A stretch of DNA of 64,000 bases from Terriglobia bacterium (GTDB lineage Bacteria; Acidobacteriota; Terriglobia; 20CM-2-55-15), in NCBI GenBank assembly GCA_965198225.1, contig CBDAOY010000005.1:736001-800000 (forward strand). The letters are read 5' to 3'. The notes under the pieces were generated by a model. It worked only from the letters and a program-made list of their open reading frames with translations. It had not been told where the DNA came from and made no database searches. Below are positions 2,367-45,513 of this stretch, one piece after another (positions within the stretch are counted from its first letter, which is position 1; each line of letters opens with the position of its first letter). Both the position numbers and the translations under genes were made by a program.

Positions 2367-3602
2367 CTAGCGTTCTATTTCCACCAGGCCTATGCGGTTC
2401 GAACTGGTTTGGTGAATCAAAAGGTTGCCCGCCTCCGTCACCCACATATTCCGGACGATGCCGACGCCGGAGGGAATGGCCCAGCTCTGGAACTTTTCCG
2501 TCTTCGGGTCGAAACGCACCAGTGCGTCAGGCCTCATCCCCGACTCGTTGTACCAGATGATGTCGTCCACGACGCTGAAAGCATAGGGATGAGAATCCGG
2601 CCCACTGGGTGAAGGCCACTCCTTGATGTCACCCGTCTCCGGGTTGAGCCTTCCGATGCGGCCTTGGGTGGAGTTCCCGTACCAGACCATGCCGTCGCTG
2701 GTGAGCCCGAGCCGGCGAATGCGGGACTCTTCGTTCGGCACCTCGTAGTAGCGGACACGCATTGTCTCCGGATTGAGGGCTCCGATCTTGTTGATGCCGT
2801 TGTAGGCAACCCAGACCGTGCCGTCGGACGCCACCTGCATACCGTACGGCCTCGGCTCGGTTTGGATCTCGGTGACCTCGCCGGTCTCAGGGCTCAGGCG
2901 GCCGAGCATATGGGCGCCCTGTGCGGTGAAGTAGAGCCTGCCGTTCGGGTGGAAGACCGCAGTGTGGGGATCCCGGGCCTCAGTCTCGTATTCGGTGACC
3001 ACGCCGGTTTTGGGATCAAGCTTGCCCATGGTCGCGTTGCTGTTTCCCGTATACCAGATGTTTCCGTCCGCGTCTGGAACGATGCTGTGCGGTCTTGAGC
3101 TGGGCGGCAGCCGAAACTCCTCCATCTCGCCCGTCTTTGGATCGAGCCGCCCCGCGAGGCTGGCCCACATCCCGGTCCACCAGATGGAGCCGTCCGGCGC
3201 CTCTATCGGGTCGCGGGACCGCTGGCCGAGAGTCGGAACCATCCACTCCGTGATCTCGATCTCCGTGTCACCCGAAACCAGCGTGGGGCGCCGCCCCGGC
3301 CGCTCGGGGTAATGCTCGGTCAGGTACCGGGCCACGGTGTGAGCCTGGGCGTCCGGAAGTGCGACCATCGAAGCGACAAGTGCCTCCCAGTCGTCCTGGG
3401 AATATCCTGATGACCTGACGATCTGGTTGAGTCCATGGCACGTGGTGCAGTGGTTCTGGACGAGTTCCTGACCAGAGCCCGCCGGCAACTCGATGGGCTG
3501 GCCACGGCCGCGCCCTCTGCCGCGCTGGGCATTCCCTGGCGCCCCAAGGGCCAGGCCAAGGAGTATCACCACCATCAGGATTGAGAATGCTTTGCCGCGC
3601 AT
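2367..3602 (-). CDS. Exported cytochrome c domain + Vgb (virginiamycin B lyase-like) beta-propeller
   Basis: Signal peptide, one CTTCH heme motif, then repeated PH/PY...DGxIWYT...GRLDPKTG blades. Confidence 0.75.
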   Translation of the reverse strand: MRGKAFSILMVVILLGLALGAPGNAQRGRGRGRGQPIELPAGSGQELVQNHCTTCHGLNQIVRSSGYSQDDWEALVASMVALPDAQAHTVARYLTEHYPERPGRRPTLVSGDTEIEITEWMVPTLGQRSRDPIEAPDGSIWWTGMWASLAGRLDPKTGEMEEFRLPPSSRPHSIVPDADGNIWYTGNSNATMGKLDPKTGVVTEYETEARDPHTAVFHPNGRLYFTAQGAHMLGRLSPETGEVTEIQTEPRPYGMQVASDGTVWVAYNGINKIGALNPETMRVRYYEVPNEESRIRRLGLTSDGMVWYGNSTQGRIGRLNPETGDIKEWPSPSGPDSHPYAFSVVDDIIWYNESGMRPDALVRFDPKTEKFQSWAIPSGVGIVRNMWVTEAGNLLIHQTSSNRIGLVEIER

Positions 3603-7294: not shown

Positions 7295-7454
7295 GTAGAG
7301 TCGACGACTGGCGCGGTGGCGGTAGGCAAAGGGGGTAGCTGTTGCCGGTGGCTTTCGCCGATTCCGGTGCCTCACTCCTCGCCGTGGCTTCGTTTCCAGT
7401 CGCCGCTCATCGAACCGGACATGCGGATTTCCCGCATCCGGCTCTCGGACGAGA

Positions 7455-8795
7455 TCATGCCTTCGCCCACGGAAAGCTCGCCGTACGCGGCGCAAGATGC
7501 GTGAGCCCGTAATCGGACCAGAGCCGCTCGGACGGGAAGCGCACGTGTTTCCCGGTCCGCACCTTGTGCTTACGGCAGAGCCACTGGCGCGGCCGCCGGG
7601 TCGCGTGTTGATCAATCGCCTTGTAGGCCGGGCGGACCTGTCCCAGGATGAAATAGTTCGCCCAACCGATCAGCAACCGGTTGAGGCGTCCCACTACGAC
7701 TCCCGACGGCAGGAGCACGTGGCGCGGCGCGGTCAACTCGCTCACACGACGGCAGATGCTCTGGACGCTTTCCCGGCTCGGATGTGTGCCTATGTAGGCG
7801 GCACCCGTACCCGGCCGGTAGTTGCAACCGATCCGGTAGCCGAGGAACGTCATCGATTCCTCCGGCACCCGGCAGCAGCGGGTCTTCTCAACGTTCATCG
7901 CCAACTTCAGACGTTTTATCAGGGCTTCGACCGCCGCTAGCATCACCGCTGCCGGCGCGCGACCGAGAACCGCGAAGTCATCCGCGTAGTTGACGATTTC
8001 CGCCTTGAAGTGCCGGGCGTAGCCCAGCACCTTCCAGCCCAGAATGAAGCGCCGCATGTAGATGTTGCTGAACAGCGGCGAGATCGGAGACCCTTGCGGG
8101 GTCCCCTTCCGCTCGTGACGCGCCCGGTTCGTGCGGCGGCGACCGCCGCGCCCGTCGTCCTCTTCCACCGCCATCTCCAGCCACGCCTTGACCCAGCCCA
8201 ACAGCCGCCCGTCGCTCACACGCCGGGCGATGGACTTCATCAGGTCCGCGTGCGGAATCTGGCCGAAGTAGTCCGACAGGTCGGCGTCCACCACCTCCCG
8301 GTGGCCCGTCGTCAGCAGCCGATGCACGCGCCTGACTGCGTCATGCGCGTCTCGGCCCGGCCGGTACGCATACTGCTCCGGTTGCAGGTCGGCTTCGAAG
8401 ATCGGCGATAACACCAGCATCGCCGCCGTCTGCACCACCCGATCCCGGAGACACGGAATGCCCAACGGCCGGAACTTCCCTCGTTGCTTCTTCGGGATGA
8501 GAACCTGCCGAACCGCATGCGGCCGATAGGTCCCTTCCTTCAGGTCCCGCGCCAGTGCTCCCAGCCACCGGTCCACCCCGAACGCATCGATGTCCGCGAC
8601 CGTCTCGCCGTCCACCCCGGCCGCGCCGCCGTTGCGGCGCACGGCCTGCCAGGCGACTGCGAGCACGTCGTCGCGCCACACCTTGTCGCTCAGAGAGTAG
8701 AACCGGAAGCCCAGAGCTTCCTTCGCTTTCGCATGTAGCGCCGTCTGGAGTCGCTGAACTCTCTCCGAGGCTGTTAGGCTCTCGCCAGTCCTCAT
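7455..8795 (-). CDS. ltrA: Group II intron reverse transcriptase/maturase (no endonuclease domain)
   Basis: RPLGIPCLRDRVVQ, YAYRPGR, DADLSDYF, GTPQGSPISPLFSNIYM, YADD, GWANYF. Start placed at MRTGESL; the track's longer start runs into IS DNA. Confidence 0.92.
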   Translation of the reverse strand: MRTGESLTASERVQRLQTALHAKAKEALGFRFYSLSDKVWRDDVLAVAWQAVRRNGGAAGVDGETVADIDAFGVDRWLGALARDLKEGTYRPHAVRQVLIPKKQRGKFRPLGIPCLRDRVVQTAAMLVLSPIFEADLQPEQYAYRPGRDAHDAVRRVHRLLTTGHREVVDADLSDYFGQIPHADLMKSIARRVSDGRLLGWVKAWLEMAVEEDDGRGGRRRTNRARHERKGTPQGSPISPLFSNIYMRRFILGWKVLGYARHFKAEIVNYADDFAVLGRAPAAVMLAAVEALIKRLKLAMNVEKTRCCRVPEESMTFLGYRIGCNYRPGTGAAYIGTHPSRESVQSICRRVSELTAPRHVLLPSGVVVGRLNRLLIGWANYFILGQVRPAYKAIDQHATRRPRQWLCRKHKVRTGKHVRFPSERLWSDYGLTHLAPRTASFPWAKA

Positions 8796-8972
8796 GTCCC
8801 TTCCTCCGTCATGCGCTGCTCTCGAACTGAGGTCCCTTCCCTCCACCGGCATTACCTGATGGGATGGACTCCTCCTTGATGACTGAGTCGGCATCGTAGT
8901 GCCAAAGTCATTGTGAAGCCTCGCGATGGTGCGGGCTAAACACGAGGACGTGTAAACAAGAAGGAGTCCGAG

Positions 8973-10007
8973 ATGAAGAGTAAAACGATCGCAGTGGATC
9001 TGGCAAAGAATGTTTTCGAGATTGGGATTTCCGACCGCCCCGGGCAGATGACGAAGACATACCGTTTAAGCCGGGGAAAGTTCTTGTCGTTTTTTGCGAA
9101 TCAGGAGCTGGCGACGGTCGTGATGGAAGCCTGCAGTGCCGCCCATCACTGGGGACGAGAGATCCAGAAACTGGGGCACACAGTGGTACTGATTTCACCG
9201 CAGTATGTCCGGCCCTACGTACCGAGGAGTAAGACGGATCGGGCGGATGTAAAAGGGTTGCTGGAGGCCCACCGGAATGCCGATATTCGGGCGGTACCCA
9301 TTAAGACGGTGGCGCAACAGCAACTCACCGCCCTGCACCGCATCCGGTCGACCTGGATGCGGACCCGGACGGCGCGCATCAACATGGTGCGGGGGCTGCT
9401 GGGAGAGTTTGGGCTCGTGCTGCCGACGGGAGCCCGGCGGCTGGTGCCCGGAGTCATGGGGTTGATCGAAGATGCGGATGTTGAGATCCCCATGACCGTA
9501 CGCGTCATGTTCTCGGAAGTGTGCACCGAAATCCGCGAGCTGGAGGCACGCATTCAATCGGTGGAGCGGGAGTTGGAAGCCCTGGCCCGTCAGATGCCCG
9601 AGGTGGCCCGTCTGCGCTCGATCCCTGGAATCGGGCTGTTGACTTCCACGGCGATGGTAGGTTTTGTCGGTGACCCCCGACGGTTTCGATCCTGTCGCCA
9701 CTTTGCCAGTTATCTGGGACTCACCCCGCGTGAGCGTTCGAGCGGAAACCGGCGTCGGCTGGGAGCGATCAGCAAACAAGGCAACGTCTACCTGCGGATG
9801 CTGCTCATACACGGTGGCCGCACTCTGCTATGGAGTGCGCATCGAAAAGGGGCGCAACCTTCGGCTCTGCAGAAATGGGGTCTCCGTCTCCACACACTCC
9901 GCGGGCACAACACGGCCACGGTTGCTTTAGCCAACAAACTGGCCCGCACGGTTTGGGCCGTCTGGACACAGGACACGGCGTACGAGGCTGACCGACGGGC
10001 GGCCTGA
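8973..10007 (+). CDS. IS110 DEDD recombinase/transposase
   Basis: IAVDLAKNVF, VVMEAC, KTDRADV, SIPGIG, YLGLTPRERSSG, VALANKLAR. Confidence 0.95.
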   Translation: MKSKTIAVDLAKNVFEIGISDRPGQMTKTYRLSRGKFLSFFANQELATVVMEACSAAHHWGREIQKLGHTVVLISPQYVRPYVPRSKTDRADVKGLLEAHRNADIRAVPIKTVAQQQLTALHRIRSTWMRTRTARINMVRGLLGEFGLVLPTGARRLVPGVMGLIEDADVEIPMTVRVMFSEVCTEIRELEARIQSVERELEALARQMPEVARLRSIPGIGLLTSTAMVGFVGDPRRFRSCRHFASYLGLTPRERSSGNRRRLGAISKQGNVYLRMLLIHGGRTLLWSAHRKGAQPSALQKWGLRLHTLRGHNTATVALANKLARTVWAVWTQDTAYEADRRAA

Positions 10008-10063
10008 CACCATGACTGTAGGAACATCCTTTCAGTAGACTGCGACGACGTTCGAGTTGATGA

Positions 10064-10207
10064 CGTACCGGTCAGACCGGCGCGGGGAAACGCCGGAGAA
10101 GCCGTGGCCCCTGGAGGCCGTTTACCCGGTTGGCACCCCGCGCGCGAATTTCATCATGGCCCGGAACTCAAACGTTCCATTCGAGAGGCCGAAGATACGG
10201 ATGCAGT
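10064..10207 (+). ncRNA. Putative bridge RNA of IS1111 #1 (target- and donor-binding loops)
   Basis: Two internal loops, each built around a TGGCC...GGCCG inner stem. Guides GAAGCCG (10098-10104) and TTACCCG (10122-10128) match the target; CATCA (10152-10156) and AGATA (10193-10197) match the element ends. Boundaries approximate. Confidence 0.75.
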
Positions 10208-10648
10208 CGATCTGTCACTCAACTCGAAAATCAAATATCAGGATGCTGAAAAGAATCTTCGGGAAAAGGATATGGGACAGCTGCGCCTACTTGACAGGAG
10301 GAGTCCAGATACGGCTTTCTTGGTACTGCGGACCTCTCCGCCACCCTGTCGGCCCAACCTGACCCTCGCGGGCTGTCGGTTGGCGCGTGCCACGCCACCG
10401 GCAGGGCTTCCCGTGTTGCGTCCAATCCCCTCTTCCATACATGCCACCGCCCAATACCCCGGCGGAACCAGTCGGTGCTCGCGTCGCTCGCTTCCCGACC
10501 GCTGGCAGCCTTCCCCGTTTCAACGGCGGGTCGGCTTCCGCATTGTGCGTTTCGATGGAGTGGACGCCCCCGCTCCCCGGCGGCAGAATGGGCCGGGTCA
10601 GCAGAACGCACAAGGGGTGCGTTCAGAACACGAGAGAGGGAGGGATAC

Positions 10649-11695
10649 ATGGGCAAGGTGATCACCATCATCGGCATCGACATTTCAAAGAGGTACTTCC
10701 AACTGCATGGAGCCACGGCAAGCGGTGAGCCTGTGCTGCGCAGGCAGCTCACGCGCCCGAAGCTACTCGAGTTCCTCGCCAAGCAGCCTGTCTGCCGGGT
10801 CGTGATGGAAGTGTGCGGCAGCGCCCATCATTGGGGGCGGATGATCCAGGAGATCGGCCACGAGGTCCGCCTGATTCCCCCGATGTATGTGAAGCCGTAC
10901 GTCAAGAGGCAGAAGAATGACGCCAACGACGCGGGAGCGATCGTCGAGGCGGCCCAGCGGCCGACGATGCGGTTCGTGGCCGTGAAGACCGAGGAGGAGC
11001 AGGCACGATCGGTGGTGTTCCGGGCCCGGGCACTGCTGGTGCGCCAGCGGACACAGACGATCAACGCGCTGCGGGGTCATCTCGCGGAGTTTGGACTCGT
11101 CGCTCCGCTTGGGACCCACAACGTCGGGAGGCTGGAGGAGGTGTTCGCGGAGCGTGAAGAGTGTTTCCCGGCGCTGGTGCCTCCCGCCATACGCCGCCTC
11201 ATCGAGCGGACCCACGATCTGGATGCGGAGATCGATGAGCTGGACCGGGAGATCCGTCGCATCGTGAGGGAAGATGAGGCGCTCGGGCGCCTGATGACGA
11301 TTCCAGGGGTGGGAGAGCTCACGGCAATGGCGGTGCACGCGTTCGCGCCACCGATGGAGAGCTTCCGTAATGGACGTGACTTTGCGGCATGGGTCGGGAT
11401 CACGCCGCGTGAATCCTCGACGGGTGGCCGCCAACGGCTGGGGGGGATCACAAAGATGGGACAGCGCGACATCCGGAGGCTCCTGTACCTGGGAGCGACG
11501 GCGGTCATCTCGAGTGCCATCCGGCGGAGGGAGGTCACCGATCCCTGGCTTGGCCGGATGCTGGACGAAAAGCCGAGGAAGGTGGTTGCGGTGGCTCTGG
11601 CCAACAGGATGGCACGCATCATCTGGGCCATGACGGTGAAGGAGGAGAGCTACAGGGCACGGGGAATGACAAAGGCCGTTGCGCCTGCAGCGTAG
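10649..11695 (+). CDS. IS110 DEDD recombinase/transposase
   Basis: IGIDISKRYFQLHG, VVMEVC, QKNDANDA, TIPGVG, WVGITPRESSTGG, VALANRMAR. RBS GGAGGG before ATG 10649. Confidence 0.95.
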   Translation: MGKVITIIGIDISKRYFQLHGATASGEPVLRRQLTRPKLLEFLAKQPVCRVVMEVCGSAHHWGRMIQEIGHEVRLIPPMYVKPYVKRQKNDANDAGAIVEAAQRPTMRFVAVKTEEEQARSVVFRARALLVRQRTQTINALRGHLAEFGLVAPLGTHNVGRLEEVFAEREECFPALVPPAIRRLIERTHDLDAEIDELDREIRRIVREDEALGRLMTIPGVGELTAMAVHAFAPPMESFRNGRDFAAWVGITPRESSTGGRQRLGGITKMGQRDIRRLLYLGATAVISSAIRRREVTDPWLGRMLDEKPRKVVAVALANRMARIIWAMTVKEESYRARGMTKAVAPAA

Positions 11696-11854
11696 GGTTG
11701 CGAGTCAGATCAGTGGAGCGAAGAAGGGTCGGCGAGATCAGAAACGCGGAGAAGAGAGAGGAAATCGTCCGGCTGGCGGCCTGGGCGGATGGACACGGGC
11801 CACGGAGGTTCCAACTGGAGAGTGCAAGCAGGACGTCGGACAAGGTAGGGGCAA

Positions 11855-12000
11855 ACGGTCGACAAGACGGGATCGGAAAACCCAGTAGGCCTCGAAGGGC
11901 CATCGAGCCCGTCGTTTCGATTTGGATCCGATCTCACGAACACCATACGGGCCCGCGGCCAGCAAGTGCCGCATCAAGAGGCCGCACATACGACCGTACC
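11855..12000 (+). ncRNA. Putative bridge RNA of IS1111 #2
   Basis: AGGCCTCGAA (11887-11896) - hairpin GGGC..GCCC - CGTTTCGA (11913-11920) match both strands of the target. CCATACG (11943-11949) and CACATACGA (11985-11993) match the circle junction. Boundaries approximate. Confidence 0.8.
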
Positions 12001-12038
12001 TGACCTGAATGCCACCGATCCTCGGTTCGAAGTCAGGC

Positions 12039-12064
12039 TTGCCAACCAGGGGGGCGTCCACATA
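12039..12064 (+). promoter_or_regulatory. -35 half of a circle-junction promoter of IS1111 #2
   Basis: TTGCCA at 12039-12044. Joining the right end to the left end would create TACGAT 18 nt downstream. Confidence 0.55.
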
Positions 12065-12253
12065 CGAGGCCTGCTCGGCGTTTACTCGCGTTGTGGCCTG
12101 TGTGGTCGCTGAGCCGCCCGAGGCGGCCCTTTGTCATCGGAGTGCTTCAGACGATGTTGTTACCTCCACCATCCGCTCCGATTGCTACCGACTGGAGCGA
12201 CAGTTGCCGGGCGGGATTCGCACCCGCTGAGGATTGGCGCCTTCTCACGGCGC

Positions 12254-16898: not shown

Positions 16899-19800
16899 TC
16901 AGGGACTCGCTGGAGGCGTCGTCGGTTCCACGGCCAACTCCAGCGGCTGACCGTTCTGCCCCGTGAAGCGGATTGATCCGGACGAGGTTTGGCCTGCTGT
17001 CCCGCTGAAGAGGACGAACTGGGTTGTCCATCCGCCGGAATCCACAAAATGGGGGAAGAACAGGTCGGATGCGTGGGCGGCCGCGTTTTCGTCGGCCGGC
17101 GGTGTCGTCGTGACCACAATGTCGAACCGCTGGTTGGTTGTCAACCGCAGGCCGACGACGGCGATGTCGGGCGTCGGGGAGGCAATCCTGAGAATTCCCG
17201 AGAAAGGCGTGGCCAATGCGGGGAAGAATTCGTCGATGAATCGAGCGGCCTGGCCCGATGCGGGGAGGGTGAGGGACTCGGTGAGTCCCGAGGCTGAGCC
17301 GTCCAATGCCGTCAATTCGAGCGACACGACGGTGGCCGTCTCCGATGTGTTGGTCAGGGCAATGCCGCTGCGCACCGAGCCCGGCTGGCCGGGGGTGCCG
17401 CTCGTCTCCCCGTAAACACGAAACGCGTTTCCGGAGATGGAGGCCGGGACACCGGCTTCGGACACGGTCACGCCGGCGTTCTGGTAAGAGAAGATGCTCA
17501 CTCCCGACGGGGCGGCGTGGCCGGGGTCAGCCACCACCCGGACTGAGCCGGTCTGAATGGGGCCGGTGGGACTGGCGGTCTGGAGCCGCGTTGCACTGCG
17601 TGGGGGGATCGCATAGGGGAATGCCGATCCATTACTCCCATCGGCAAGCGTCAGCGTGGCCGGCCCGGCGTTCGCAGTCTCGCTGCCGGGGCCAAGGAAC
17701 TGAACGCTCCCCTGGATCGGGGCATGGGTGGGGTTGACGAGAATGACCTGGGTCGTCCATCCGGCTCCCGCCGCGAAATGCGGAAAGTAGACCGTGGCGG
17801 GCGTGGGGACTGTGAGCGGCGCGACGGGAAGCGTCGTCATCAGGAACTCGGAGCGCTCATTGACGAACCCGCGCAGCGCGATGACGGCGACCGGCAGGTC
17901 GGAGCTGAAGGTGAACGTGCCCCACACTGCGTCGCCTCCGTTAAACGGATCCTCGTCCAGGAATTGTGCGATCTGTTCCCGGGGCCCCAGCATGAACGTG
18001 CCGTGTCCGGAGTCGATGCCTTGGCTATCGGTGAAGAAGAACCCGATCGTGGCGGCGGTGCCGTTGGGATTGGCCATGGCGATCCCGGTCCGGAGAGCAC
18101 CGTCGGTTTCGGCAAAGATCCGGCCTTCCAGTACGGCGGCGGCGGCGGGGACGCCGGCTTCCGAGACGAGAATCCCGTCCTGCCGGGAACCAAATATGGC
18201 CAGTCCGGTTGGCAGCGTCATGCCCGCACCGGCCGCCACCTGTCCATATCCGGCAACGAGCGCGGGGGAGGCGCCCTGGGAGGTGAGGGAAACTCCGCCC
18301 TGGTCTGGAATGGAGAACCGTTGCGTGGCGGACGTACCGGTCGGACTCAGCAGGCGGATCCGGTAGTTGCCCGCATCGGCGATGTAGAGGTTGCCAACCC
18401 CGTCCACCGCCACGCCCCGTATATGGCTGATCTGCGCCTGGCTCGCCGGACCGCCGTCCCCGCTGAAACCGCGCTCCCCCGTGCCCGCAATCGTCGTGAT
18501 CACCCCCGTCGAATCGACCTTGCGGATGCGGAAGTTGCCCGCATCGGCGATGTAGAGGTTGCCAACCCCGTCCACCGCTACGCCTGTGGGAAGCTCGATC
18601 TGCGCCTGGCTCGCCGGACTGCCGTCCCCGCTGAAACCGCGGAGCCCCGTGCCCGCCACGGTCGTGATCATCCCGGTGGAGTCGACCTTGCGGATACGGA
18701 AGTTGTTCCTGTCGGTGATGTAGAGGTTGCCCGCCCCGTCCACCGCCACGCCATAGGGAGAGTTGAGCCCCGCCTGGCTCGCCGGCCCGCCGTCCCCGCT
18801 GAAACCGCGCCGCCCCGTGCCCGCCACGGTCGTGATCGTCCCGGCGGAATCGACCTTGCGGATCCGGTGGTTGCGGGTCTCGGCGAAGTAGAGGTTGCCC
18901 GCCCCGTCCACCGCTATGCCTGTGGGAGTGTTGATCGGCGCCTGGCTCGCCGGCCCACCGTCCCCACTGAAACCGCGGAGCCCCGTGCCCGCCACGGTCG
19001 TGATCGTCCCGGTGGAATCGACCTTGCGGATCCGGTCGTTGACAGCGTCAGCGAAGTAGAGGTTGCCCGCCCCGTCCACCGCTATACCTGTGGGAAGCTC
19101 GATCCACGCCTCGGTCGCCGGACCGCCATCGCCTCTGAAACCGAGCCCCCCCGTGCCCGCCACGGTCGTGATCGTTCCGGTGGAATCGACCTTGCGGATA
19201 CGGCCGTTGCCGAAATCGGCGATGTAGAGGTTGCCCGCCCCGTCCACCGCTATACCTGTGGGAAGCTCGATCCACGCCTCGGTCGCCGGACCGCCATCGC
19301 CGCTGAAACCGAACTTCCCAGTCCCCGCAATCGTCGTGATCGTTCCGGTGGAATCGACCTTGCGGATACGGTTGCCCCTATCGGCGATGTAGAGGTTGCC
19401 CGCCCCGTCGACCGCCACGCCTGTGGGAGTGTTGATCTGCGCCTGGCTCGCCGGACCGCCATCGCCGCTGAAACCGCGCTCCCCAGTCCCCGCAAGCGTC
19501 GTGATCGTTCCGGTGGAATCGACCTTGCGGATACGGTTGCCCCTATCGGCGATGTAGAGGTTGCCTGCACCGTCGACCGCCACACCCTCGGGAGAGTTGA
19601 TCTGCGCCTGGCTCGCCGGACCGCCATCGCCGCTGAAACCGAGCCCCCCTGTGCCCGCCACGGTCGTGATCATCCCGGTGGAGTCGACCTTGCGGAGGCG
19701 GTGGTTGCCGGTATCGGCGATGTAGAGGTTGCCTGCACCGTCGACCGCCACACCCTCGGGAGAGTTGATCTGCGCCTGGCTCGCCGGACCGCCATCGCCG

Positions 19801-21635
19801 CTGAAACCGAGCCCCCCTGTGCCCGCCACGGTCGTGATCATCCCGGTGGAGTCGATTTTGCGGATACGGTGGTTGTTCATATCAGCGATGTAGAGGTTGC
19901 CCGCTCCGTCCAACGCCACACCCTCGGGCCAGGAGAGCGTCGCCTGAGTCGCCGGTCCTCCGTCCCCGCTGAAATCGCTCTTCCCCGTCCCGGCAATCGT
20001 CGTGATCGTCCCGTTGGAATCGACCTTGAGGATGCGATGGTTGTTCCTATGGGCGATGTAGAGGTTGCCCGCCCTGTCCACCGCCACGCCATCGGGAGAG
20101 GAGAACCACGCCTGGGTTGCCGGACCGCCGTCCCCGCTGAAACCGAATTCCTCCGTGCCCGCCACGGTCGTGATCGTCCCGGTGGAATCGACCTTGCGGA
20201 TCCGGTGGTTGCTGCTGTCGGCAAAGTAGAGGTTGCCCACGCCGTCCACCGCCACGCCATCGGGAGAGTTGAGCTCCGCCTGAGTCGCCGGTCCGCCGTC
20301 CCCGCTGAAACGGAGCTCTCCCGTGCCAGCCACGGTTGTGATCGTTCCGGTGGAATCGATCTTGCGGATGAGGCCGTTGCCGGTATCGGCGATGTAGAGG
20401 TTGCCCGCCCCGTCCACCGCCACGTCCTCGGGAGCGGTGAGCTGTGCCTGGGTTGCCGGCCCGCCGTCTCCGCCGGAACCAATCACCCTCGGTCTCCCTG
20501 CCACGGTCGTGATCGTTCCGGTGGAATCGATCTTGCGGATGAGGCGGTTGCCGGTATCGGCGATATAGAGGTTGCCCGCCCCGTCCGCCGCCACGCCCTC
20601 GGGCCAGGAGAGCGACGCCTGAGTCGCCGCCCCGCCGTCTCCGTGGAAACCACTCGCCCTCGGTCTCCCTGCCACGGTCGTGCCCGTCCCCGCGGAATCG
20701 ACCTTGAGGATGCGGTGGTTGCGCCTGTCGGCGATATAGAGGTTGCCCGCCCCGTCCACCGCCACGCCTGTGGGAGAGTTGAGCGGCGCCCCAGTCGCCG
20801 GGTCTCCATTCCGGAAAAATTCGGAACCCATCCCGCCCGCCACGGTCGTGATTGTCCCGGTGGAGTCGACCTTGCGGATCCGGTCGTTGCGCTCATCGGC
20901 AAAGTAGAGGTTGCCCGTCGCGTCCACCGCCATGCCACGGGGAGAGTCGATCTGCGCCTGAGTCGCCGGTCCGCTGTCACCGCTGATACCGTGCTCCCCC
21001 GTGCCCGCCACGGTCGTGATCGTCCCGTTGGAATCGACCTTGCGGATGCGGTGGTTGCTGCTGTCAGCGATGTAGAGGTTGCCCGCCCCGTCCACCGCCA
21101 CGCCATAGGGAGAGTTGATCTGCGCCTGAGTCGCCGGTCCGCCATCGCCGCTGATACCGCGCTCCCCCGTGCCCGCCACGGTCGTGATCGTCCCGTTGGA
21201 ATCGACCTTGCGGATGCGGTGGTTGCTGCTGTCGGCGATGTAGAGGTTGCCTGCCCCGTCCACCGCCACACCCTCGGGACGGGCGATCCGCGCCTGAGTC
21301 GCAGGGCCGCCGTCCTCAAGCACTCGCTGCCCGGCGAAAGTATCGATTCTATAGCTGGTCTGAAGCTGCGCCCAGGCCACTGGAGTGAGCAGTGCCAGGC
21401 AGCCGATAAGAGAAGTGAACCTGGCCAGGAAACGCCCCCCGGACCGTCCATAGGCCCGACGTGGGCGGGGATTACCGGGCCGGTCCGGGAAGAACTCATC
21501 GGCGGCGCATGCCCGCCCGCCGACGGCAAACGCGTAGACTCGCCAACCGCGCGCTCGCAGCGCTGAAAGTATGCTGGATAATTGAGTCATGGATGAATGT
21601 AGCGTTCTGCGTTCTGCGGTTAGTGTATCGTTCAT
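16899..21635 (-). CDS. Large exported NHL-repeat (teneurin-like) protein with C-terminal beta-rich domains; true start uncertain
   Basis: 18 units of GFSGDGGPA...P.GVAVDGAGNLYIAD..N.RIRKVD. Signal-like segment LLTPVAWAQ; C-terminal FPHFAAGAGWTTQ motif present twice. Confidence 0.88.
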   Translation of the reverse strand: MNDTLTAERRTLHSSMTQLSSILSALRARGWRVYAFAVGGRACAADEFFPDRPGNPRPRRAYGRSGGRFLARFTSLIGCLALLTPVAWAQLQTSYRIDTFAGQRVLEDGGPATQARIARPEGVAVDGAGNLYIADSSNHRIRKVDSNGTITTVAGTGERGISGDGGPATQAQINSPYGVAVDGAGNLYIADSSNHRIRKVDSNGTITTVAGTGEHGISGDSGPATQAQIDSPRGMAVDATGNLYFADERNDRIRKVDSTGTITTVAGGMGSEFFRNGDPATGAPLNSPTGVAVDGAGNLYIADRRNHRILKVDSAGTGTTVAGRPRASGFHGDGGAATQASLSWPEGVAADGAGNLYIADTGNRLIRKIDSTGTITTVAGRPRVIGSGGDGGPATQAQLTAPEDVAVDGAGNLYIADTGNGLIRKIDSTGTITTVAGTGELRFSGDGGPATQAELNSPDGVAVDGVGNLYFADSSNHRIRKVDSTGTITTVAGTEEFGFSGDGGPATQAWFSSPDGVAVDRAGNLYIAHRNNHRILKVDSNGTITTIAGTGKSDFSGDGGPATQATLSWPEGVALDGAGNLYIADMNNHRIRKIDSTGMITTVAGTGGLGFSGDGGPASQAQINSPEGVAVDGAGNLYIADTGNHRLRKVDSTGMITTVAGTGGLGFSGDGGPASQAQINSPEGVAVDGAGNLYIADRGNRIRKVDSTGTITTLAGTGERGFSGDGGPASQAQINTPTGVAVDGAGNLYIADRGNRIRKVDSTGTITTIAGTGKFGFSGDGGPATEAWIELPTGIAVDGAGNLYIADFGNGRIRKVDSTGTITTVAGTGGLGFRGDGGPATEAWIELPTGIAVDGAGNLYFADAVNDRIRKVDSTGTITTVAGTGLRGFSGDGGPASQAPINTPTGIAVDGAGNLYFAETRNHRIRKVDSAGTITTVAGTGRRGFSGDGGPASQAGLNSPYGVAVDGAGNLYITDRNNFRIRKVDSTGMITTVAGTGLRGFSGDGSPASQAQIELPTGVAVDGVGNLYIADAGNFRIRKVDSTGVITTIAGTGERGFSGDGGPASQAQISHIRGVAVDGVGNLYIADAGNYRIRLLSPTGTSATQRFSIPDQGGVSLTSQGASPALVAGYGQVAAGAGMTLPTGLAIFGSRQDGILVSEAGVPAAAAVLEGRIFAETDGALRTGIAMANPNGTAATIGFFFTDSQGIDSGHGTFMLGPREQIAQFLDEDPFNGGDAVWGTFTFSSDLPVAVIALRGFVNERSEFLMTTLPVAPLTVPTPATVYFPHFAAGAGWTTQVILVNPTHAPIQGSVQFLGPGSETANAGPATLTLADGSNGSAFPYAIPPRSATRLQTASPTGPIQTGSVRVVADPGHAAPSGVSIFSYQNAGVTVSEAGVPASISGNAFRVYGETSGTPGQPGSVRSGIALTNTSETATVVSLELTALDGSASGLTESLTLPASGQAARFIDEFFPALATPFSGILRIASPTPDIAVVGLRLTTNQRFDIVVTTTPPADENAAAHASDLFFPHFVDSGGWTTQFVLFSGTAGQTSSGSIRFTGQNGQPLELAVEPTTPPASP
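18350..21330 (-). repeat. Intragenic tandem array of 18 ~168-bp NHL repeat units
   Basis: Recurring GTAGAGGTTGCCCGCCCCGTCCACCGC at ~165-171 bp spacing; some adjacent units nearly identical. Confidence 0.9.
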
Positions 21636-21939
21636 GGTTTTGATCTGTTGTTAAACTCTCACCGGAATATTCCGGTTTTTTCCGCTGCACATCCATTCCC
21701 GCGCCCAGGGCTCGGAGCTTCTCTCGCCTCCGGACCGCGTCTTTGAGGAGATTTCGTCTGGACCTCGGGGCGCTATCATCCTGGACCCGGAGCAATTGTG
21801 CGCACTACCCCGGCTTTTCAAGAGTCCTCACTTGAAGAGTCAAACCTGTTTCACGATGCCGGCACTTTGCCAGCTACCGGTGACCGCTGCTGCGGGAGAA
21901 TTCTGGCGGGAACCCCGGAGGGCTGGGCCGGATCCGTAA

Positions 21940-22290
21940 GGGCGGGAATTCCTATCTACCGGATGTTCTTGTGGTCGGCGCACGGACACAGTATCACGTC
22001 GGCGACTCTGCTGAAGTGGAGGCTCCGCATTCATGAAGAATGCGGGCATAACCAGGCGGCGGTGGCGCTCGCCAACAAGCTGTGCCGACGATCTGCGCCG
22101 CCTGGAAGCGCGATTCCGACTATCCGGAGGCCAGACCGGATTTCGTTGCAGCAGGCCGCACTGACGTTCCTGTGCTGGCGTATCGGTCGGTCGGCGCGGG
22201 CACACGCCGACAAACTTCAGGCCCCTTCGGGGCTGTCATTTGACGCCTGGCGCCGCGTGCGACCTTGCATCGTGGCCTGAAATCCTACAA
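21940..22290 (+). mobile_element. Remnant of a third IS1111 element: transposase C-terminus plus bridge-RNA scaffold
   Basis: FLWSAH...LLKWRLRIHEECGHNQAAVALANKLCR resembles the IS #1 transposase end. 22181-22278 aligns with 10064-10161. Confidence 0.72.
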
Positions 22291-22330
22291 TTCCACTGGA
22301 GCGGCTGGAGCTGCGGATGCAGTCGTCGGC

Positions 22331-23704: not shown

Positions 23705-24168
23705 TATCAGCCAGTCTGACTTCCGACAGGCCTTCGGGTCTTCCTCGCGTTGTTGGCTTGTCCAACCCTACAAGCTCCGCTTGAACCTGACGGATCTCCC
23801 TTGTTCCCATGAAATCCTTGGTTGCATGCCGGCGGTACGAACCCCGGAAGGTTGCCATTGCGTGCCCTGCGATTCCGCCTTCCCCGGCGGTACGAACCCC
23901 GGAAGCACCCCAGGGCACGCCATTGCGTGCCCTGCGATTCCGCCTTCCCCCAGCGACAGGGTCGGCTACTTCAACCACGTTCGATCAACCACGTTCGATT
24001 TCGGGGCTATCTTTCCGTTCACTGGTGTTCCGGCCTACTCCCTCCCTGTCTACGCTTCGCAGTGTCCGTCACCGACCACCACGCAAGACTCGGTACGTGG
24101 CTGCCGGCTAGGCTCTGCCACGGCCGCCATCTCAGGCGACTGGATCTCATGCGCTTGCAAGGCGCAAC

Positions 24169-26050
24169 GCTCATCGAACCGGACATGCAGATTTCCCGCA
24201 TCCGGCTCTCGGACGAGATCATGCCTTCGCCCACGGAAAGCTCGCCGTACGCGGCGCAAGATGCGTGAGCCCGTAATCGGACCAGAGCCGCTCGACCGGG
24301 AAGCGCACGTGTTTCCCGGTCCGCACCTTGTGCTTACGGCAGAGCCACTGGCGCAGCCGCCGAGTTGCGTGCCGGTCAATCGCCTCGTAGGCCGGGCTGA
24401 CCTGTCCCAGGGTGAAGTAGTTCGCCCAACCGGTCAGCAACCGGTTGAGGCGTCCCACTACGACCTCCGGCGGCAGGAGCGCGTGACGCGGCGTGGTCAA
24501 CTCGCTCACACGACGGCAGATGCTCTGGACGCTTTCCCGGCTCGGACGTGTGCCTATGTAGGCGGCACCCGTGTCCGGCCGGTAGTTGCAACCAATCCGG
24601 TAGCCGAGGAACGTCATCGATTCCTCCGGCACCCGGCAGCAGCGGGTCTTCTCAACGTTCATCGCCAACTTCAGACGTTTTATCAGGGCTTCGACCGCCG
24701 CTAGCATTACCGCTGCCGGCGCGCGACCGAGAACCGCGAAGTCATCCGCGTAGTTGACGATTTCCGCCTTGAAGTGCCGGGCGTAGCCCAGCACCTTCCA
24801 GCCCAGAATGAAGCGCCGCATGTAGATGTTGCTGAACAGCGGCGAGATCGGAGACCCTTGCGGGGTCCCCTTCCGCTCGTGACGCGCCCGGTTCGTGCGG
24901 CGGCGACCGCCGCGCCCGTCGTCCTCTTCCACCGCCATCTCCAGCCACGCCTTGACCCAGCCCAACAGCCGCCCGTCGCTCACGCGCCGGGCGATGGACT
25001 TCATCAGGTCCGCGTGCGGAATCTGGCCGAAGTAGTCCGACAGGTCGGCGTCCACCACCTCCCGGTGGCCCGTCCTCAGCAGCCGATGCACGCGCCTGAT
25101 TGCGTCATGCGCGTCTCGGCCCGGCCGGTACGCATACTGCTCCGGTTGCAGGTCGGCTTCGAAGATCGGCGATAACACCAGCATCGCCGCCGTCTGCACC
25201 ACCCGATCCCGGAGACACGGAATGCCCAACGGCCGGAACTTCCCTCGTTGCTTCTTCGGGATGAGAACCTGCCGAACCGCATGCGGCCGATAGGTCCCTT
25301 CCTTCAGGTCCCGCGCCAGTGCTCCCAGCCACCGGTCTACCCCAAGCGCCTCGATGTCTCCGACCGTCTCGCCGTCCACCCCGGCCGCGCCGCCGTTGCG
25401 GCGCACGGCCTGCCAGGCGACTGCGAGCACGTCGTCGCGCCACACCTTGTCGCTCAGAGAGTAGAACCGGAAGCCCAGAGCTTCCTTCGCTTTCGCATGT
25501 AGCGCCGTCTGGAGTCGCTGAACTCTCTCCGAGGCTGTTAGGCTCTCGCCAGTCCTCATGTCCCTTCCTCCGTCATGCGCTGCTCTCGAACTGAGGTCCC
25601 TTCCCTCCACCGGCATTACCCGGCTTCCCTGGTACTGCGGACCTCTCCGCCACCCTGTCGGCCCAACCTGACCCTCGCGGGCTGTCGGTTGGCGCATGCC
25701 ACGCCACCGGCAGGGCTTCCCGTGTTGCGTCCATCCCCCCCTTCCACACGTGCCGCCGCTACTACCCCGGCGGAACCGGTCGGTGCTCGCGTCGCTCGCT
25801 TCCCGACCGCTGGCAGCCTTCCCCGTATTCCGGGCGGATCGGCTTCCGCATCGCTTCGTTACGAGGCCTGCGCAGCGTTCACATCGTTGCGGCCCGCGTG
25901 GTCGCTGAACCGCCCAGGGCGGCCCTTTGTCATCGGAGTGCTTCAGCCGATGTCGTTACCTCCATCGTCCGCTCCGACTGCTACCGGCTGGAGCGACAGT
26001 TGCCGGGCGGGGTTCGCACCCGCTGGGGAATGGCGCCTTTCACGGCGCAC
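24169..26050 (-). mobile_element. Group II intron copy A2 (domains I-V; domain VI displaced by intron B)
   Basis: Canonical 5' GTGCGCCGTG at 26050; domain V GAGCCGGATGCGGGAAATCTGCATGTCCGGTTC; near-identical RT to A1. Confidence 0.9.
24219..25559 (-). CDS. ltrA: Group II intron reverse transcriptase/maturase
   Basis: Same motifs as 7455-8795 (YADD, GTPQG, GWANYF), with few substitutions. Confidence 0.92.
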   Translation of the reverse strand: MRTGESLTASERVQRLQTALHAKAKEALGFRFYSLSDKVWRDDVLAVAWQAVRRNGGAAGVDGETVGDIEALGVDRWLGALARDLKEGTYRPHAVRQVLIPKKQRGKFRPLGIPCLRDRVVQTAAMLVLSPIFEADLQPEQYAYRPGRDAHDAIRRVHRLLRTGHREVVDADLSDYFGQIPHADLMKSIARRVSDGRLLGWVKAWLEMAVEEDDGRGGRRRTNRARHERKGTPQGSPISPLFSNIYMRRFILGWKVLGYARHFKAEIVNYADDFAVLGRAPAAVMLAAVEALIKRLKLAMNVEKTRCCRVPEESMTFLGYRIGCNYRPDTGAAYIGTRPSRESVQSICRRVSELTTPRHALLPPEVVVGRLNRLLTGWANYFTLGQVSPAYEAIDRHATRRLRQWLCRKHKVRTGKHVRFPVERLWSDYGLTHLAPRTASFPWAKA

Positions 26051-35285: not shown

Positions 35286-35845
35286 GTGCCAGGCCAACGC
35301 ATCGCCTACGTCCGGGTGAGCAGCATCGACCCGAACCCGGAACGCCAACTGGAGCAGCTCCCCCTCGACCAGGTCTTTACCGACCAGGCTTCGGGCAGGG
35401 ACACAGAGCGTCCGGAACTGGAACGGCTGCTCGCCTTCGTGCGCAAAACCGACACGGTGGTGGTCCACAGCATGGATCGGCTGGCTCGCAACCTGGACGA
35501 CCTGCGGCGCATCGTGGGCACGCTGACCGGGCGCGGCGTACGCATCGAGTTCGTCAAGGAGAACCTGACCTTCACCGGCGAGGACTCCCCGATGGAGGAC
35601 CTCATGCTGTCGGTCATGGGGGCCTTCGCCGAGTTCGAGCGGGCCTTGCTCCGGGAACGGCAGCGCGAAGGCATCGCCCTAGCCAAGCAGCGCGGGGCCT
35701 ACCGGGGCCGCAAGAAAACGCTCGCGCCGGCGCAGGCGGCCCAGCTCCGCCAACGGGTCCCGGTCGGAGAGGGAAAGACCCGGCTGGCCCGCGAGTTCGG
35801 CATCAGCCGGCAAACCCTCTACAAATACCTGCGCACAGAAGACTG
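35286..35845 (+). CDS. tnpR: Serine resolvase TnpR (Tn21-like); normal stop lost, ORF reads on to 36392
   Basis: AYVRVSS, DTVVVHSMDRLARNLDDL, MGAFAEFERALLRERQREGI, HTH LAREFGISRQTLYKYL. Confidence 0.88.
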
Positions 35846-35885
35846 CCGATGCCTGACCGCAGCTTGCGGACACCCGCTGCGCGGG

Positions 35886-36374
35886 CTATTTGGGATCCGT
35901 GTCCTTGGCCGCAAGGATGGCGCGGGCCTGTTGGGTGAGGAGTTCCTTCTCTTTGGGCGTAAACCGGATATCTCCGCTGACCCACTTGGTGAGAGCAGCG
36001 AGATCCCGGGTGGCGATCTCGGTGATGCGCATCTCCTCACCCCGAAGAGTGATGGAAATGGCTCCAGCAATCTCAATCGCTTGCTGGCACTCCCGGATGG
36101 ATATCGTTGGCGGGAGAGGAGGAAACCGCTCGAGGAACTGGCGTTCGTCTTCTGCAATGATGGCGCGCGCCTTCCGGGTGAGTTCTTCCCGGCTGGCGCG
36201 CGGAAGCCGGATATCTCCGCAGATCCAGTTCTTCCCATGGACGCGGAGGGCTCTGGTGATGAGCACCTGCTCCCCACGGATCATCACAGGGATGCCAACA
36301 CCGGCGGTTGCGCTCGCCCTTTCCACGAGAGAAATCGCCCTTTGGCAAGTTCCGATGGATATTCTCGGTTTCAT
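35886..36374 (-). CDS. Hypothetical RepA-coupled protein with an internal two-fold repeat
   Basis: ATGA overlap with the repA stop; homologues at 45067 and 63197; two copies of ISIxxCQxAI...RGE...IT...WxxGDIR...ELTxxARAI. Confidence 0.7.
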   Translation of the reverse strand: MKPRISIGTCQRAISLVERASATAGVGIPVMIRGEQVLITRALRVHGKNWICGDIRLPRASREELTRKARAIIAEDERQFLERFPPLPPTISIRECQQAIEIAGAISITLRGEEMRITEIATRDLAALTKWVSGDIRFTPKEKELLTQQARAILAAKDTDPK

Positions 36375-37372
36375 CCTTCCGCCGTGGGGTGAACCCTCGA
36401 AGCTTTTTCTACAAGCGAAAGCTGCTGAACCGGAGCGATGGCCGGGGCCGAAGGCAACAGGATCAGGACGCCCGGAGCCGTGGTGTAGTTCAACTCCGGC
36501 CAGGCCAGCTTGATCTTCTTCAACTCACGCAGAACATTTTGGCGGAAGCTCCGAACGATGAATTTGTCGCTGGCTTTGGCCGGAGCCGTCCCGAACTGGC
36601 CGTACAGCTGCGGCCAAGGGATGTGGAGCGGAGCGCGCAATGTGGAGATCCGGTAGGCCACCCACAGGTAGAGATCGAGGCACAGCGAAGAGCTTTTGAG
36701 GGCCGTGAGGGTGTTCATGTCGAGCGGCACCGGGCGGTTGACAATCTCATTGAACAAGTCTTCGCTGAGTTCGATCTTGCTCTCCCACAGCATCGGCACA
36801 TCGAGACGCTTCGGATCCCACCAGAGCTCGGTGCGGGCGGCGATCCGCGAGTTTACGGTGGCCTTGCCGCGCTCATCCGAGTAGATCAGCGAAACGTGTG
36901 CGTTGAACAGGCGGTCCATCTGGTTGCAGAGCCTCGATTGGGTTCTCCCGTCAGTGCTGGTGATACCCAGCTTGCGCATGAACTCGGAAAGCGAAGAACC
37001 GAGGATCAGCACATGGCTTTGAGTGCGTACCGCCTCCGTGCAAAGCCAAGCCAGCAGCAGGCGGGAAATATTTCCGTAGGGGAGTTTGGTCTCACCGCTT
37101 GAAAATATGACCAGCTTGTACGTGCCGTTGAGGCGTTGGTATTCCTTCTGGTTGCCGGGGTTGGCGCGGGGCAAGCTGCACAACGCCAGCATTCGCGCCA
37201 TGAAACCCATATCGGGGTCTCTTTCGCTGACCCCGATCAACTGGTCCACTTGATCGGCAATGGTGAAGCTCCGCCGCCGCGGCGGTGATGGGCGGAGCTC
37301 CTGGCCCGGCCCGTCATCCAGGCCGGAGAGGGCATCACCGATCGGAACCAATCCGTCTCGCTTACGCTTCAT
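36371..37372 (-). CDS. repA: Plasmid replication initiator RepA (RepA_C / IncW-like family)
   Basis: GFMARMLALCSLP, LPYGNISRLLLAWLCTEAVRT, LGSSLSEFMRKLG, QMDRLF, VPLDMNTLTALKSSSLCLDLYLW. Confidence 0.85.
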   Translation of the reverse strand: MKRKRDGLVPIGDALSGLDDGPGQELRPSPPRRRSFTIADQVDQLIGVSERDPDMGFMARMLALCSLPRANPGNQKEYQRLNGTYKLVIFSSGETKLPYGNISRLLLAWLCTEAVRTQSHVLILGSSLSEFMRKLGITSTDGRTQSRLCNQMDRLFNAHVSLIYSDERGKATVNSRIAARTELWWDPKRLDVPMLWESKIELSEDLFNEIVNRPVPLDMNTLTALKSSSLCLDLYLWVAYRISTLRAPLHIPWPQLYGQFGTAPAKASDKFIVRSFRQNVLRELKKIKLAWPELNYTTAPGVLILLPSAPAIAPVQQLSLVEKASRVHPTAEG

Positions 37373-37573
37373 GGCTTTTCATTCTCCCGTGTTCCCGGAC
37401 AAGGCAGGGGAACCACGGGCGTCTATTCCCGGACCCCGAGCGGCAGCCGTGCGAAAAATTACTCTAAGGGTCCGTGTGTGACCCTCCTGGAGTAATTCCC
37501 GCCACCGCTTCCGCTATATGAGAAGCGCCAGTTCTGCGGGGTGTCCAACGTCAATCAAAATTCCCGCCCCTAA

Positions 37574-38830
37574 CCCGACTTCCGCGGTTCTCCCGATTTT
37601 CATCTAATTCCATTTGGAGCACGAATCGCGTTTGTTTTCTGTGCCTTGACCTCCTGGGTGGGCGTGTAGTGCCGACCCCCTTGATTAGTTTTTCGGATAT
37701 GCCGACGATGCGTGCATGTTCGTGCGCTGCAAGAAGCGATTCAAGGACGGCAAGGAGCACCGCTACTGGAGTGTCGTCGAGAGCAGCTTCTCTATCTCGG
37801 GAGAGCCACGGTGGTGCCGCTCGATCGAGGTTCTCAGCGGCGGCGCGGCGCTGCAGCAGATCTGTTTCCCGGACCCCGCGCCGGTGTTGGATTGCGGCAG
37901 CCGTGCAAATCCAGCTCGACAAACTGGAACTGCGCGATCCGCGCCAGTGGGGCGCCTGCTGGCTGGCGCTGGCGTTGTGGGACCGTCTCGGGCTGGACCG
38001 TTTCTGGGGCCCGCGGCTGCCGCCCAGCCGCAAGGGCACCCGATGGCTCGATATCCTCAAGGTGCAGGTCTGTTATCACCTGTGTGACCTGGTATGAACA
38101 CAGCTCCTGGAGTGACCGCGTGATCTCCGAACCGCTTCCCGCCACCGAGTTCTTCTCTTCCTCAAGGCGCGCCGCCCTATGTTCTGCTCTACGATCTGAC
38201 CAGAAGCGCCCTTGGCGGGCAAACGCCAGTTCGGCTACAGCGAAAGCGTCTGCGGGGTGTCCAACGTCAATCGCAATTCCCGACCCCTGGATCATGGATC
38301 GCGGTTCGAGGAGACCCTGGCCAGTGCGCGCCGCCTCGGGCCTGCGATCAAGCTTCCGTCGCTGGTCCGTAGCGAAAAACGGATCTCGAAGGAACGAGCA
38401 TGCGGCGGCGAGAAGAAGCTTCCCGATTCATGACCTGCAGCGACAATCCCTCAGCCGGGATGCGTTGCTGATCAAGCTGGGCGCCGCAAAGAAGGAGGCC
38501 ACGCGCCGTCGAGCCTGTGGGCTTTGCCTTCAACGTGGTAAAGCCGCAGGCTTTTCCAAGCAGCGGCGTTCAAGGAACTCAAGCATCCGTGTTGCCTTTC
38601 GCCTGGTGCCTGCATCACCCTAACCCTCATCCGCCCCCACGCCCCGGGGCTGACACCCCGCGCAATCCTCGACACATTCTCGACCATACAGATGCGGCGT
38701 TGTTCATGTTCCACGGCGCCACCTCGTCCGCCGCTACACCCAACCCAACAGGGACCATCTCTTGCTGCTGCATCATTTTTTGCCGCAACAGCCGACACCG
38801 CGCATCGCCGTCCTGCCACGGCCCCGATCG
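37574..38830 (+). pseudogene. Heavily deleted IS1634-like transposase remnant mixed with IS21 end pieces
   Basis: MFVRCKKRFKDGKEHRYWSVVES, RQWGACWLALALWDRLGLDRFW, SRDALLIKLGAAKKEA, GLTPRAILDTFSTIQM, RYTQP, LPQQPTPRI in shifting frames. Confidence 0.65.
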
Positions 38831-45066: not shown

Positions 45067-45513
45067 CTATTGGGAAGGCGTGTCCTTGCCCGCAATGATG
45101 GCGCGGGCCTGCTGGGTGAGGAGTTCCTTCTCTTTGGGCGTGAAGCGGATATCTCCGCTGACCCACTTGGTGAGATCCCGGGTTGCGATTTCGGTGATGC
45201 GCATCTCCTCACCCCGAAGGGTGATGGAGATGGCCCCGGCAATCTCCATCGCTTGCTGGCACTCCCGGATCGATATCGTTGGCGGGCGAGGAGGAAACCG
45301 CTCGAGAAACTGGCGTTCGTCTTCTGCAAGGCTGGCGCGCGGAAGCCGGATATCTCCGCCGACCCGGTGCTTCCCATGTACGCGGAGGGCTCTGGTGATG
45401 AGCACCTGCTCCCCACGGATCATCACATGGATGCCAACACCGGCGATCGTACTGGCCCTTTCGACGATAGCAATCGGCCTTAGGCAAGTTCCGATGGATA
45501 TTTTCGGTTTCAT
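45067..45513 (-). CDS. Hypothetical RepA-coupled repeat protein, divergent copy
   Basis: 148-aa homologue of 35886-36374 with ATGA overlap to repA. Confidence 0.7.
   Translation of the reverse strand: MKPKISIGTCLRPIAIVERASTIAGVGIHVMIRGEQVLITRALRVHGKHRVGGDIRLPRASLAEDERQFLERFPPRPPTISIRECQQAMEIAGAISITLRGEEMRITEIATRDLTKWVSGDIRFTPKEKELLTQQARAIIAGKDTPSQ

Follow-up and report, generated by a model that had tools for sequence, protein, structure and literature searches.

The window, a stretch of 64,000 nucleotides, contains two group II intron copies on the minus strand, recognised by Rfam matches and by reverse transcriptase and maturase domains (Pfam). Copy A1 lies at about 7295-12253 and copy A2 at about 24168-26048. 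Alignment of A1 with A2 by blastn revealed three collinear blocks: 7404-8856 with 24168-25620 (97.7%), 10312-10555 with 25621-25864 (91.1%) and 12063-12253 with 25860-26048 (88.5%). Thus, A1 has two inserts. The first, IS #1, is a complete insertion sequence of the IS1111 type with a length of 1455 bp (8857-10311, plus strand). The alignment placed it exactly between positions 25620 and 25621 of A2. The filled site reads CATTACC/TGATGGG...CCAGATA/CGGCTTTC and the empty A2 site (25614-25629) reads CATTACC/CGGCTTCC. Comparison of the two revealed that the boundary of the element cannot be shifted and that a target duplication is absent. A preliminary description of this DNA, made from the letters alone, had stated that the same target is intact and empty in A2. 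The alignment bears this out, and the unoccupied target TTACC-CG-GCTTC is located at 25616-25627 on the plus strand.

IS #1 begins with a left terminal extension, TGATGGGA (8857-8864), of which the first two bases are TG where the target has CG. Next to it lies the left subterminal inverted repeat TGGACTCCTCCT (8865-8876), which forms a 12-bp perfect repeat with the right subterminal inverted repeat AGGAGGAGTCCA (10296-10307). The right terminal extension GATA (10308-10311) was defined by the A1/A2 alignment and the position of the repeat. Hence 8 bp lie outside the inverted repeat on the left and 4 bp on the right. More distant relatives have a repeat that is longer by one base, so that their extensions measure 7 and 3 bp; the 4-bp difference is unchanged. 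On the outside, the left flank CATTACC (8850-8856) represents the left target half-site, of which TTACC is kept at 5/5 distinct IS #1 sites, and the right flank CG+GCTTT (10312-10318) comprises the target dinucleotide and the right half-site. All these features were read on the plus strand, as was the transposase gene (8973-10007), which encodes 344 aa. The translation matches the Pfam domains DEDD_Tnp_IS110 (PF01548, 2.4e-08) and Transposase_20 (PF02371, 5.9e-24) and contains GLTPRERSSG, the GL-P----S(t)G motif of IS1111 transposases. The non-coding DNA downstream of the gene (10008-10311) amounts to 304 nt versus 116 nt upstream (8857-8972). By its domains, length, motif and repeats, and by site- and orientation-specific insertion without duplication, IS #1 is a member of the IS1111 group. 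For this family, PMC11187229 describes a transposase of 330-350 aa with the GL-P----S/TG motif, a non-coding region downstream, subterminal repeats of 11-13 bp and unequal extensions of 7 bp on the left and 3 bp on the right.

Inspection of IS #1 by eye also revealed a TTGACA 15 nt from the right end. If the ends were joined, as in a circular intermediate, this hexamer would face TATGAT of the left end across a 13-nt spacer, which is below the 16-18 that are usual for a promoter.

The genome of the window holds four identical IS #1 copies at three kinds of site. Two are in the intron site and two in related sites, TTACC/CGGCTCC or TTACC/CGGGCTC. In each of the four, TTACC precedes the element and CGG follows it. 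Two other genomes hold identical copies at further sites, one of which is unrelated to the rest. At one of the non-intron sites the element interrupts a gene for an IS5-like DDE transposase (PF13737, 1.8e-32), the frame of which continues across the insertion (932-1498 and 2957-3469 of locus L001, G000:C5:837146-841600). Based on the intron sites and this split gene, the known targets of IS #1 are mobile elements themselves. Within the intron, 61 nt separate the target site from the ATG of the maturase downstream. The preliminary description had spoken of an intron domain III site; the local fold around the A2 site on the intron-sense strand (z -0.26) did not point to any particular domain. 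A literature search found no paper on insertion of an IS110-family element in group II introns; this does not prove their absence. The similarity of A1 and A2 stops at 7404/24168. Beyond that point A2 meets a different group II intron 5' model (RF02005, 114 bits, 23889-24132), and A1 has domains V-VI there (RF00029, 7295-7446). Perhaps A2 is truncated, or it is nested with a further intron.

The second insert of A1, IS #2 (window 10553-12064, 1512 bp), is another IS1111-type element with both Pfam domains in its transposase. Its empty site in A2 is 25861/25862, and CG stands at both of its junctions. Another contig (L008) carries one more IS #2 copy with the same flanks. With the sites of two different IS1111-type elements only 241 bp apart in one group II intron, a multi-copy mobile element serves as a landing pad.

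A conserved RNA scaffold downstream of the transposase gene

Relatives of IS #1 were collected by a protein search of 400 genomes of the Terriglobia class, which found them in 42 genomes, the window's own genome counted. An earlier single-protein search of related loci had given 7 loci, and the class-wide search was used instead. Covariance model R1 was built from 13 RNA regions, one of them from a genome marked as unpublished (G335). Searching with cmsearch resulted in 60 matches in 62 sources. In IS #1 the scaffold of a bridge RNA or seekRNA matched at 10057-10210 on the plus strand with 163.7 bits, and conserved sequence around it extends from about 10040 to 10230. The preliminary description had placed a bridge RNA at 10064-10207. 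The location holds, but the extent was drawn too narrowly.

Alignment of the RNA matches showed conserved helices, with variation greatest in the two arms of the loop. Consensus pairs are filled in 96.3% of the cells of the 13 sequences, compared to 88.2% in shuffles. Fourteen pairs changed on both sides, and the observed score was reached by 0/500 shuffles of these sequences. The consensus fold obtained with RNAalifold and the pair counts support a long helix (10080-10087 with 10136-10143), in which both partners have changed in 6/8 pairs. They also support a short helix, formed by 10092-10095 and 10131-10134. The inner hairpin of the target loop, UGGCC-CCUGGA-GGCCG (10105-10120), is paired in 98.1% of cells. 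A second hairpin with the same UGGCC...GGCCG stem (10157-10191) has two helices that are paired in 98.5% and 92.3%. Helix P0 joins 10058-10063 to 10151-10156 (94.9% paired, two pairs changed on both sides). A possible alternative to P0 is a long-range helix of 10051-10064 with 10214-10228, which is paired in 70.1% and has six pairs changed on both sides. Besides these helices the consensus includes a small hairpin.

Both target arms lie in an internal loop that reaches from the short helix to the inner hairpin. As the preliminary description had expected, the two segments thereby fall in an internal loop, which is set between two covarying helices. Folds of single sequences were dropped for loop placement. 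In these folds the guides partly pair together, and the z values of -2.03 and -0.79 were not better than shuffles. Therefore, the placement of the loop is based on the consensus fold. No Rfam family matched the RNA in a gathering search of the window or in a permissive Rfam 15 search of 8857-12062, which returned one chance match (E 7.3).

Public sequencing runs were inspected for the locus (four runs, contigs only). In an RNA library, one contig spans 9432-10314 with low depth; it may stem from DNA carry-over and does not prove transcription. A joint that skips exactly 8857-10311 occurs in two RNA-library runs of one study (shorter side 22 letters), and loose ends with the left flank directly before 10312 occur in two other public runs. 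Both the skipping joints and the loose ends may stem from paralogous empty intron copies and contribute nothing beyond A2. A circle-type joint did not appear among those listed, which carries no weight, as rare forms are lost in contigs.

Model R1 also matched at two other places in the window. The RNA of IS #2 is located at 11844-12003 (56.6 bits). The site of IS #2 can be read from the arms of this RNA, with CGAGGCCT present in the 5' arm once reverse-complemented and CGTTTCGA present in the 3' arm. The other match (22172-22326, 94.8 bits) follows a decayed 3' fragment of an IS1111-type transposase, the region spanning about 21850-22330. An intact gene is absent from this region, a right-end repeat was not found there and the end-matching segment is degenerate.

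Target arms and segments matching the element ends

Two segments of the RNA correspond to the insertion site. The 5' segment GAAGCCG (10098-10104) is complementary to the top strand CG+GCTTC, which is the core plus the right half-site. The 3' segment TTACCCGG (10122-10129) equals the top-strand TTACC+CG+G and would pair with the bottom strand. Read against the site, the two arms would thus bind opposite strands, the 5' one the top strand and the 3' one the bottom strand, with an overlap on CG. GAAGCCG fits the empty A2 site (CGGCTTC) at 7/7 positions and the occupied A1 flank (CGGCTTT) at 6/7. Across the five distinct IS #1 sites the 3' arm matches 8/8 everywhere, and the 5' arm matches 4 to 6/7, with 4-5/7 at the non-intron sites. 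Unoccupied exact copies of the 13-mer TTACCCGGCTTYC were found five times in the genome, A2 among them (reversed control, 0+1). Based on the arm matches and the unoccupied copies, the intron site is the best match and a multi-copy target.

We then compared the guides of the relatives with their flanks. Element ends were called by a script for 46 of the 60 RNA matches. The 14 rows without called ends are truncated loci or cases where the script missed the repeat; L005, L012 and L042 remained uncalled, though inspection by eye shows where they end. L065 (length 1228, unlike ends) was discarded as a wrong call, and L037, where the flank is cut by the contig end, as well as a partial second match in L044 were left out of the guide-flank test. 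For 26 distinct guide pairs, the longest exact matches to the own flanks, summed, had a mean of 12.96 nt. Against the flanks of other elements (650 cross pairs) the mean was 6.31 nt. None of 10,000 permutations reached the observed total, with the reservation that the 26 pairs are kin and not independent.

Individual relatives show the same behavior. L005, a 72%-identical relative in the same genome, has kept the scaffold and the end-matching segments; its arms differ and match its own flanks. Between L028 and L029 a compensatory change was found, TGACC against TGATC, in arm and flank alike. The position of the 5' arm is hypervariable in the relatives and tracks the right flank. Counted from the inner stem, the register of this arm in IS #1 is shifted by one base compared to the nearest relatives. 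Taken together, the comparison supports the view that the segments are target guides of an IS1111-type RNA, in which the scaffold is kept and the guides change with the flanks. The preliminary description had named these segments, which are all present in the sequence where it located them, and had proposed that two of them read the insertion site. It had also named an observation that would speak against it, namely relatives with different flanks that keep the same segments. The reverse was found, as the segments of such relatives match their own flanks.

A second part of the RNA corresponds to the ends of the element. The segment AGAUACG (10193-10199), a candidate left-donor guide, matches the last five element bases plus the target dinucleotide CG at 7/7 positions; it is part of the segment AGAUACGG (10193-10200). 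The same rule, last 5 nt of the element plus first 2 nt of the flank, was observed in four end types (AGATA-CG, ATATA-TG, ATACA-TT and ACATA-CG), with 6-7/7 matches in every row. The ATATA-TG type comes from L028, L029 and L039, the last of which belongs to the unpublished genome G335; the type stands without L039. These matches support AGAUACG as a putative donor guide for the right end.

The other segment, UUUCAUCA (10149-10156), is a candidate right-donor guide or the 3' strand of helix P0. It is complementary to the whole 8-nt left extension TGATGGGA by 6 Watson-Crick and 2 G-U pairs. In the consensus fold, however, its last six bases pair with UGAUGA at 10058-10063 of the RNA, which is a near copy of the element's left end. 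Among 22 distinct combinations, segments of this type fill 118/132 cells of the internal helix, 115/132 cells with left-end positions 3-8 and 26/44 cells with left-end positions 1-2. The preliminary description had a second loop carry CATCA and AGATA as matches to the ends. For AGAUACG this is clearly supported. CAUCA fits the left end and the UGAUG in the 5' part of the RNA itself equally well, and it does not lie in a simple internal loop. Thus the right-end segment is supported and the left-end segment only plausible as a donor guide, one that may be masked in the free RNA. Such masking would fit a remark in PMC11208160 that donor-binding nucleotides of IS1111 elements are often in a multi-loop.

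Proposed mechanism and competing readings

Based on these observations, IS #1 is very probably an active or recently active IS1111-group element whose long 3' non-coding region encodes a structured guide RNA (bridge RNA or seekRNA). How this RNA would act is derived by homology with tested IS1111 elements. The RNA would bind the DEDD transposase and present the internal loop with the target arms. Pairing of these arms would fix the site and the orientation of the insertion, between TTACC and CGGCTT. The second module would hold the element ends, with AGAUACG representing the right end plus the target dinucleotide. UUUCAUCA would complement the left end TGATGGGA and, in the free RNA, could be closed instead by the RNA's own 5' UGAUGA.

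It is also conceivable, though rather unlikely, that the target loop alone guides. CAUCA would then be a strand of the closing helix, and the protein would read the ends via the subterminal inverted repeats. The high filling of helix P0 and its two pairs changed on both sides speak for this arrangement. In addition, the last bases of the UUUCAUCA-type segment covary with the 5' strand of the RNA and not with the left end in L029 and L040. Furthermore, for ISEc11 PMC11187229 reports that a short 82-nt seekRNA with the target matches is enough for transposition. In contrast, the AGAUACG-type segment tracks the right end and the target dinucleotide in all four end types. The complementarity of the CAUCA-type segment to left-extension positions 3-8 likewise speaks for a donor function, as do L036 and L041, where the segment follows the left end in its last bases. 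We prefer the reading with two modules, target and donor.

A further reading is that the block acts as DNA, where single-stranded or looped element DNA would pair with the target as in IS200/IS605-type selection. All support presented here is at the level of the DNA sequence, and covariation would look the same for a folded RNA and a folded DNA strand. The helices, however, contain frequent G-U pairs, such as pair 61-103, which is G-U in 11/13 sequences, and this fits RNA better than DNA. Moreover, in tested IS1111 members the RNA co-purifies with the transposase and works in trans (PMC11187229). We consider a DNA-based mode highly improbable. Chance matching of the loop to the flanks has next to no probability: each single match is short (6-8 nt) and some self-complementarity is bound to arise from the palindromic CCGG of the target, but the permutation test contradicts it, the geometry is identical in every element and guide changes are compensated in L005, L028 and L029.

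Known guide-RNA systems and unequal junction dinucleotides

The RNA of IS #1 resembles the seekRNAs of ISEc11, ISKpn4, ISPa11 and ISPst6 (Siddiquee et al. 2024, PMC11187229). In that paper, the IS1111 seekRNAs are located downstream of tnp, are required for transposition and co-purify with the transposase, and the top-strand match is 5' of the bottom-strand match, with an overlap; RNAs of the IS110 type have the opposite order. IS #1 shares with these members the downstream RNA, a transposase of ~340 aa with GL-P----S/TG, subterminal repeats in the range of 11-13 bp, unequal extensions and the lack of a target duplication. Its 5' arm is likewise complementary to the top strand and its 3' arm to the bottom strand, with overlap. 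Natural reprogramming between close relatives, as seen in our series, is described there for the pair ISEc11/ISXne4. In contrast to the tested members, the host of IS #1 is an uncultured Terriglobia bacterium and the element is known from its sequence alone. Unlike the elements of Siddiquee et al., IS #1 has its target in a group II intron; the IS5-like transposase gene is a further target that its guides match less well. ISEc11 also differs in that 4 bp are repeated, whereas the first two bases of IS #1 are TG and those after its right end CG.

With IS621 (Durrant et al. 2024, PMC11208160; Hiraizumi et al. 2024, 2026) IS #1 shares a DEDD-type recombinase with a PF02371 domain. It also shares two modules whose arms overlap a central dinucleotide, each module having one arm for the left half-site on the bottom strand and one for the right half-site on the top strand. 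In IS621 the RNA is encoded in the left end, upstream of tnp, and the left-target guide is 5' of the right-target guide (PMC11208160). IS #1 has its RNA in the right end, downstream of tnp, and the opposite arm order. The donor module of IS #1 has no simple internal loop, in contrast to IS621. Similarities were also found to the IS110/IS1111-family element ISPpu9 and its RNA Ssr9 (Pares-Guillen et al. 2025, PMC12288879), with a repeated sequence as target and an RNA gene downstream of tnp. ISPpu9 also has isolated RNA modules, to which the fragment without tnp at window 21850-22330 may be compared.

The boundaries of IS #1 differ from those of the known systems. All IS #1 copies have TG at the left junction and CG at the right. 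IS621 has the core CT on both sides and ISEc11 repeats 4 bp (PMC11208160; PMC11187229). ISPpu9 has an invariant AG at both boundaries and recombines at that dinucleotide (PMC12288879); unlike ISPpu9, IS #1 has no common dinucleotide at its boundaries. The preliminary description had hinted at non-identical donor and target cores. This hint proved correct and applies to the whole clade, not to this copy alone. The first two bases of the element and the first two of the flank differ at 33 of 36 distinct clade sites and are identical at three. The left/right combinations are TG/CG (13 sites), TA/TT (11), TG/CA (3), TA/TG (3) and others (6). The reverse arrangement, with the target dinucleotide on the left and that of the element on the right, was seen at 0/36 of these sites.

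Empty sites confirm the boundaries in three lineages, those of IS #1 (A2), L022 and L031. For the L022 lineage, 35 empty sites were found in 3/4 genomes. They always have two bases between the half-sites, namely CA (29), CG (4), GA (1) and CC (1). For the L031 lineage, the empty site CCACA-TT-CCGATAAGA accounts for 8/14 pattern matches. Empty sites of the L032/L043 lineage were looked for in 2 genomes and none was found. The target of L022, GATGATTTAT-CA-GGACTTGA, is highly repeated (G064, G128, G164), with 22 unoccupied copies in one 4.9-Mb genome.

In the RNA, the dinucleotides of the element and of the target are carried in different segments. It is possible, although we hold this only tentatively and with more doubt than confidence, that in this IS1111 clade the DNA partners have no shared core, with TG (or TA) in the element and CG/CA (or TT/TG) in the target. 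If a 2-nt overlap were swapped symmetrically as in IS621 and the heteroduplex then segregated at random, both arrangements would arise. The one-sided outcome suggests that strand exchange follows another order or geometry, or that its resolution is directed. If true, IS1111-type recombinases would need no core identity between donor and target. The published supplementary tables may list similar elements with unequal dinucleotides.

Overall, the guide RNA of IS #1 is a genuine but expected case of the system described in 2024, and it adds no new principle. Two side points are worth noting, the unequal dinucleotides and the near copy of the left end inside the RNA. Programmable 'bridge' recombination builds on the guide RNAs of IS110/IS1111 elements. 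The relatives described here form a natural Acidobacteriota series in which one scaffold carries 26 reprogrammed guide pairs; their occupied sites are known, as are empty sites for three lineages. This series is useful for the pairing rules of the less studied IS1111 branch, such as arm lengths and tolerated mismatches, and also informs the handling of the central dinucleotide and the build of the donor module. At the IS #1 sites, for example, the arm for the left flank matches 8/8 and the arm for the right flank tolerates mismatches (4-7/7).

Some minor observations were made alongside. The relative L005 (G000:C4:90681-95070) ends with ...CCAGA directly before the flank, where its own RNA and its relatives predict ...CCAGATA + CG. 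Three bases seem to be missing at this right junction, and the copy may be disabled. Elsewhere in the window there is a 2-kb inverted repeat (35562-37574 and 61997-64000, 99.6% identity) with a third copy at 45330-46416 (77%). On the minus strand, a 1578-aa ORF contains a long tandem-repeat array (18333-21315) with units ~168 nt apart that share about 80% identity.
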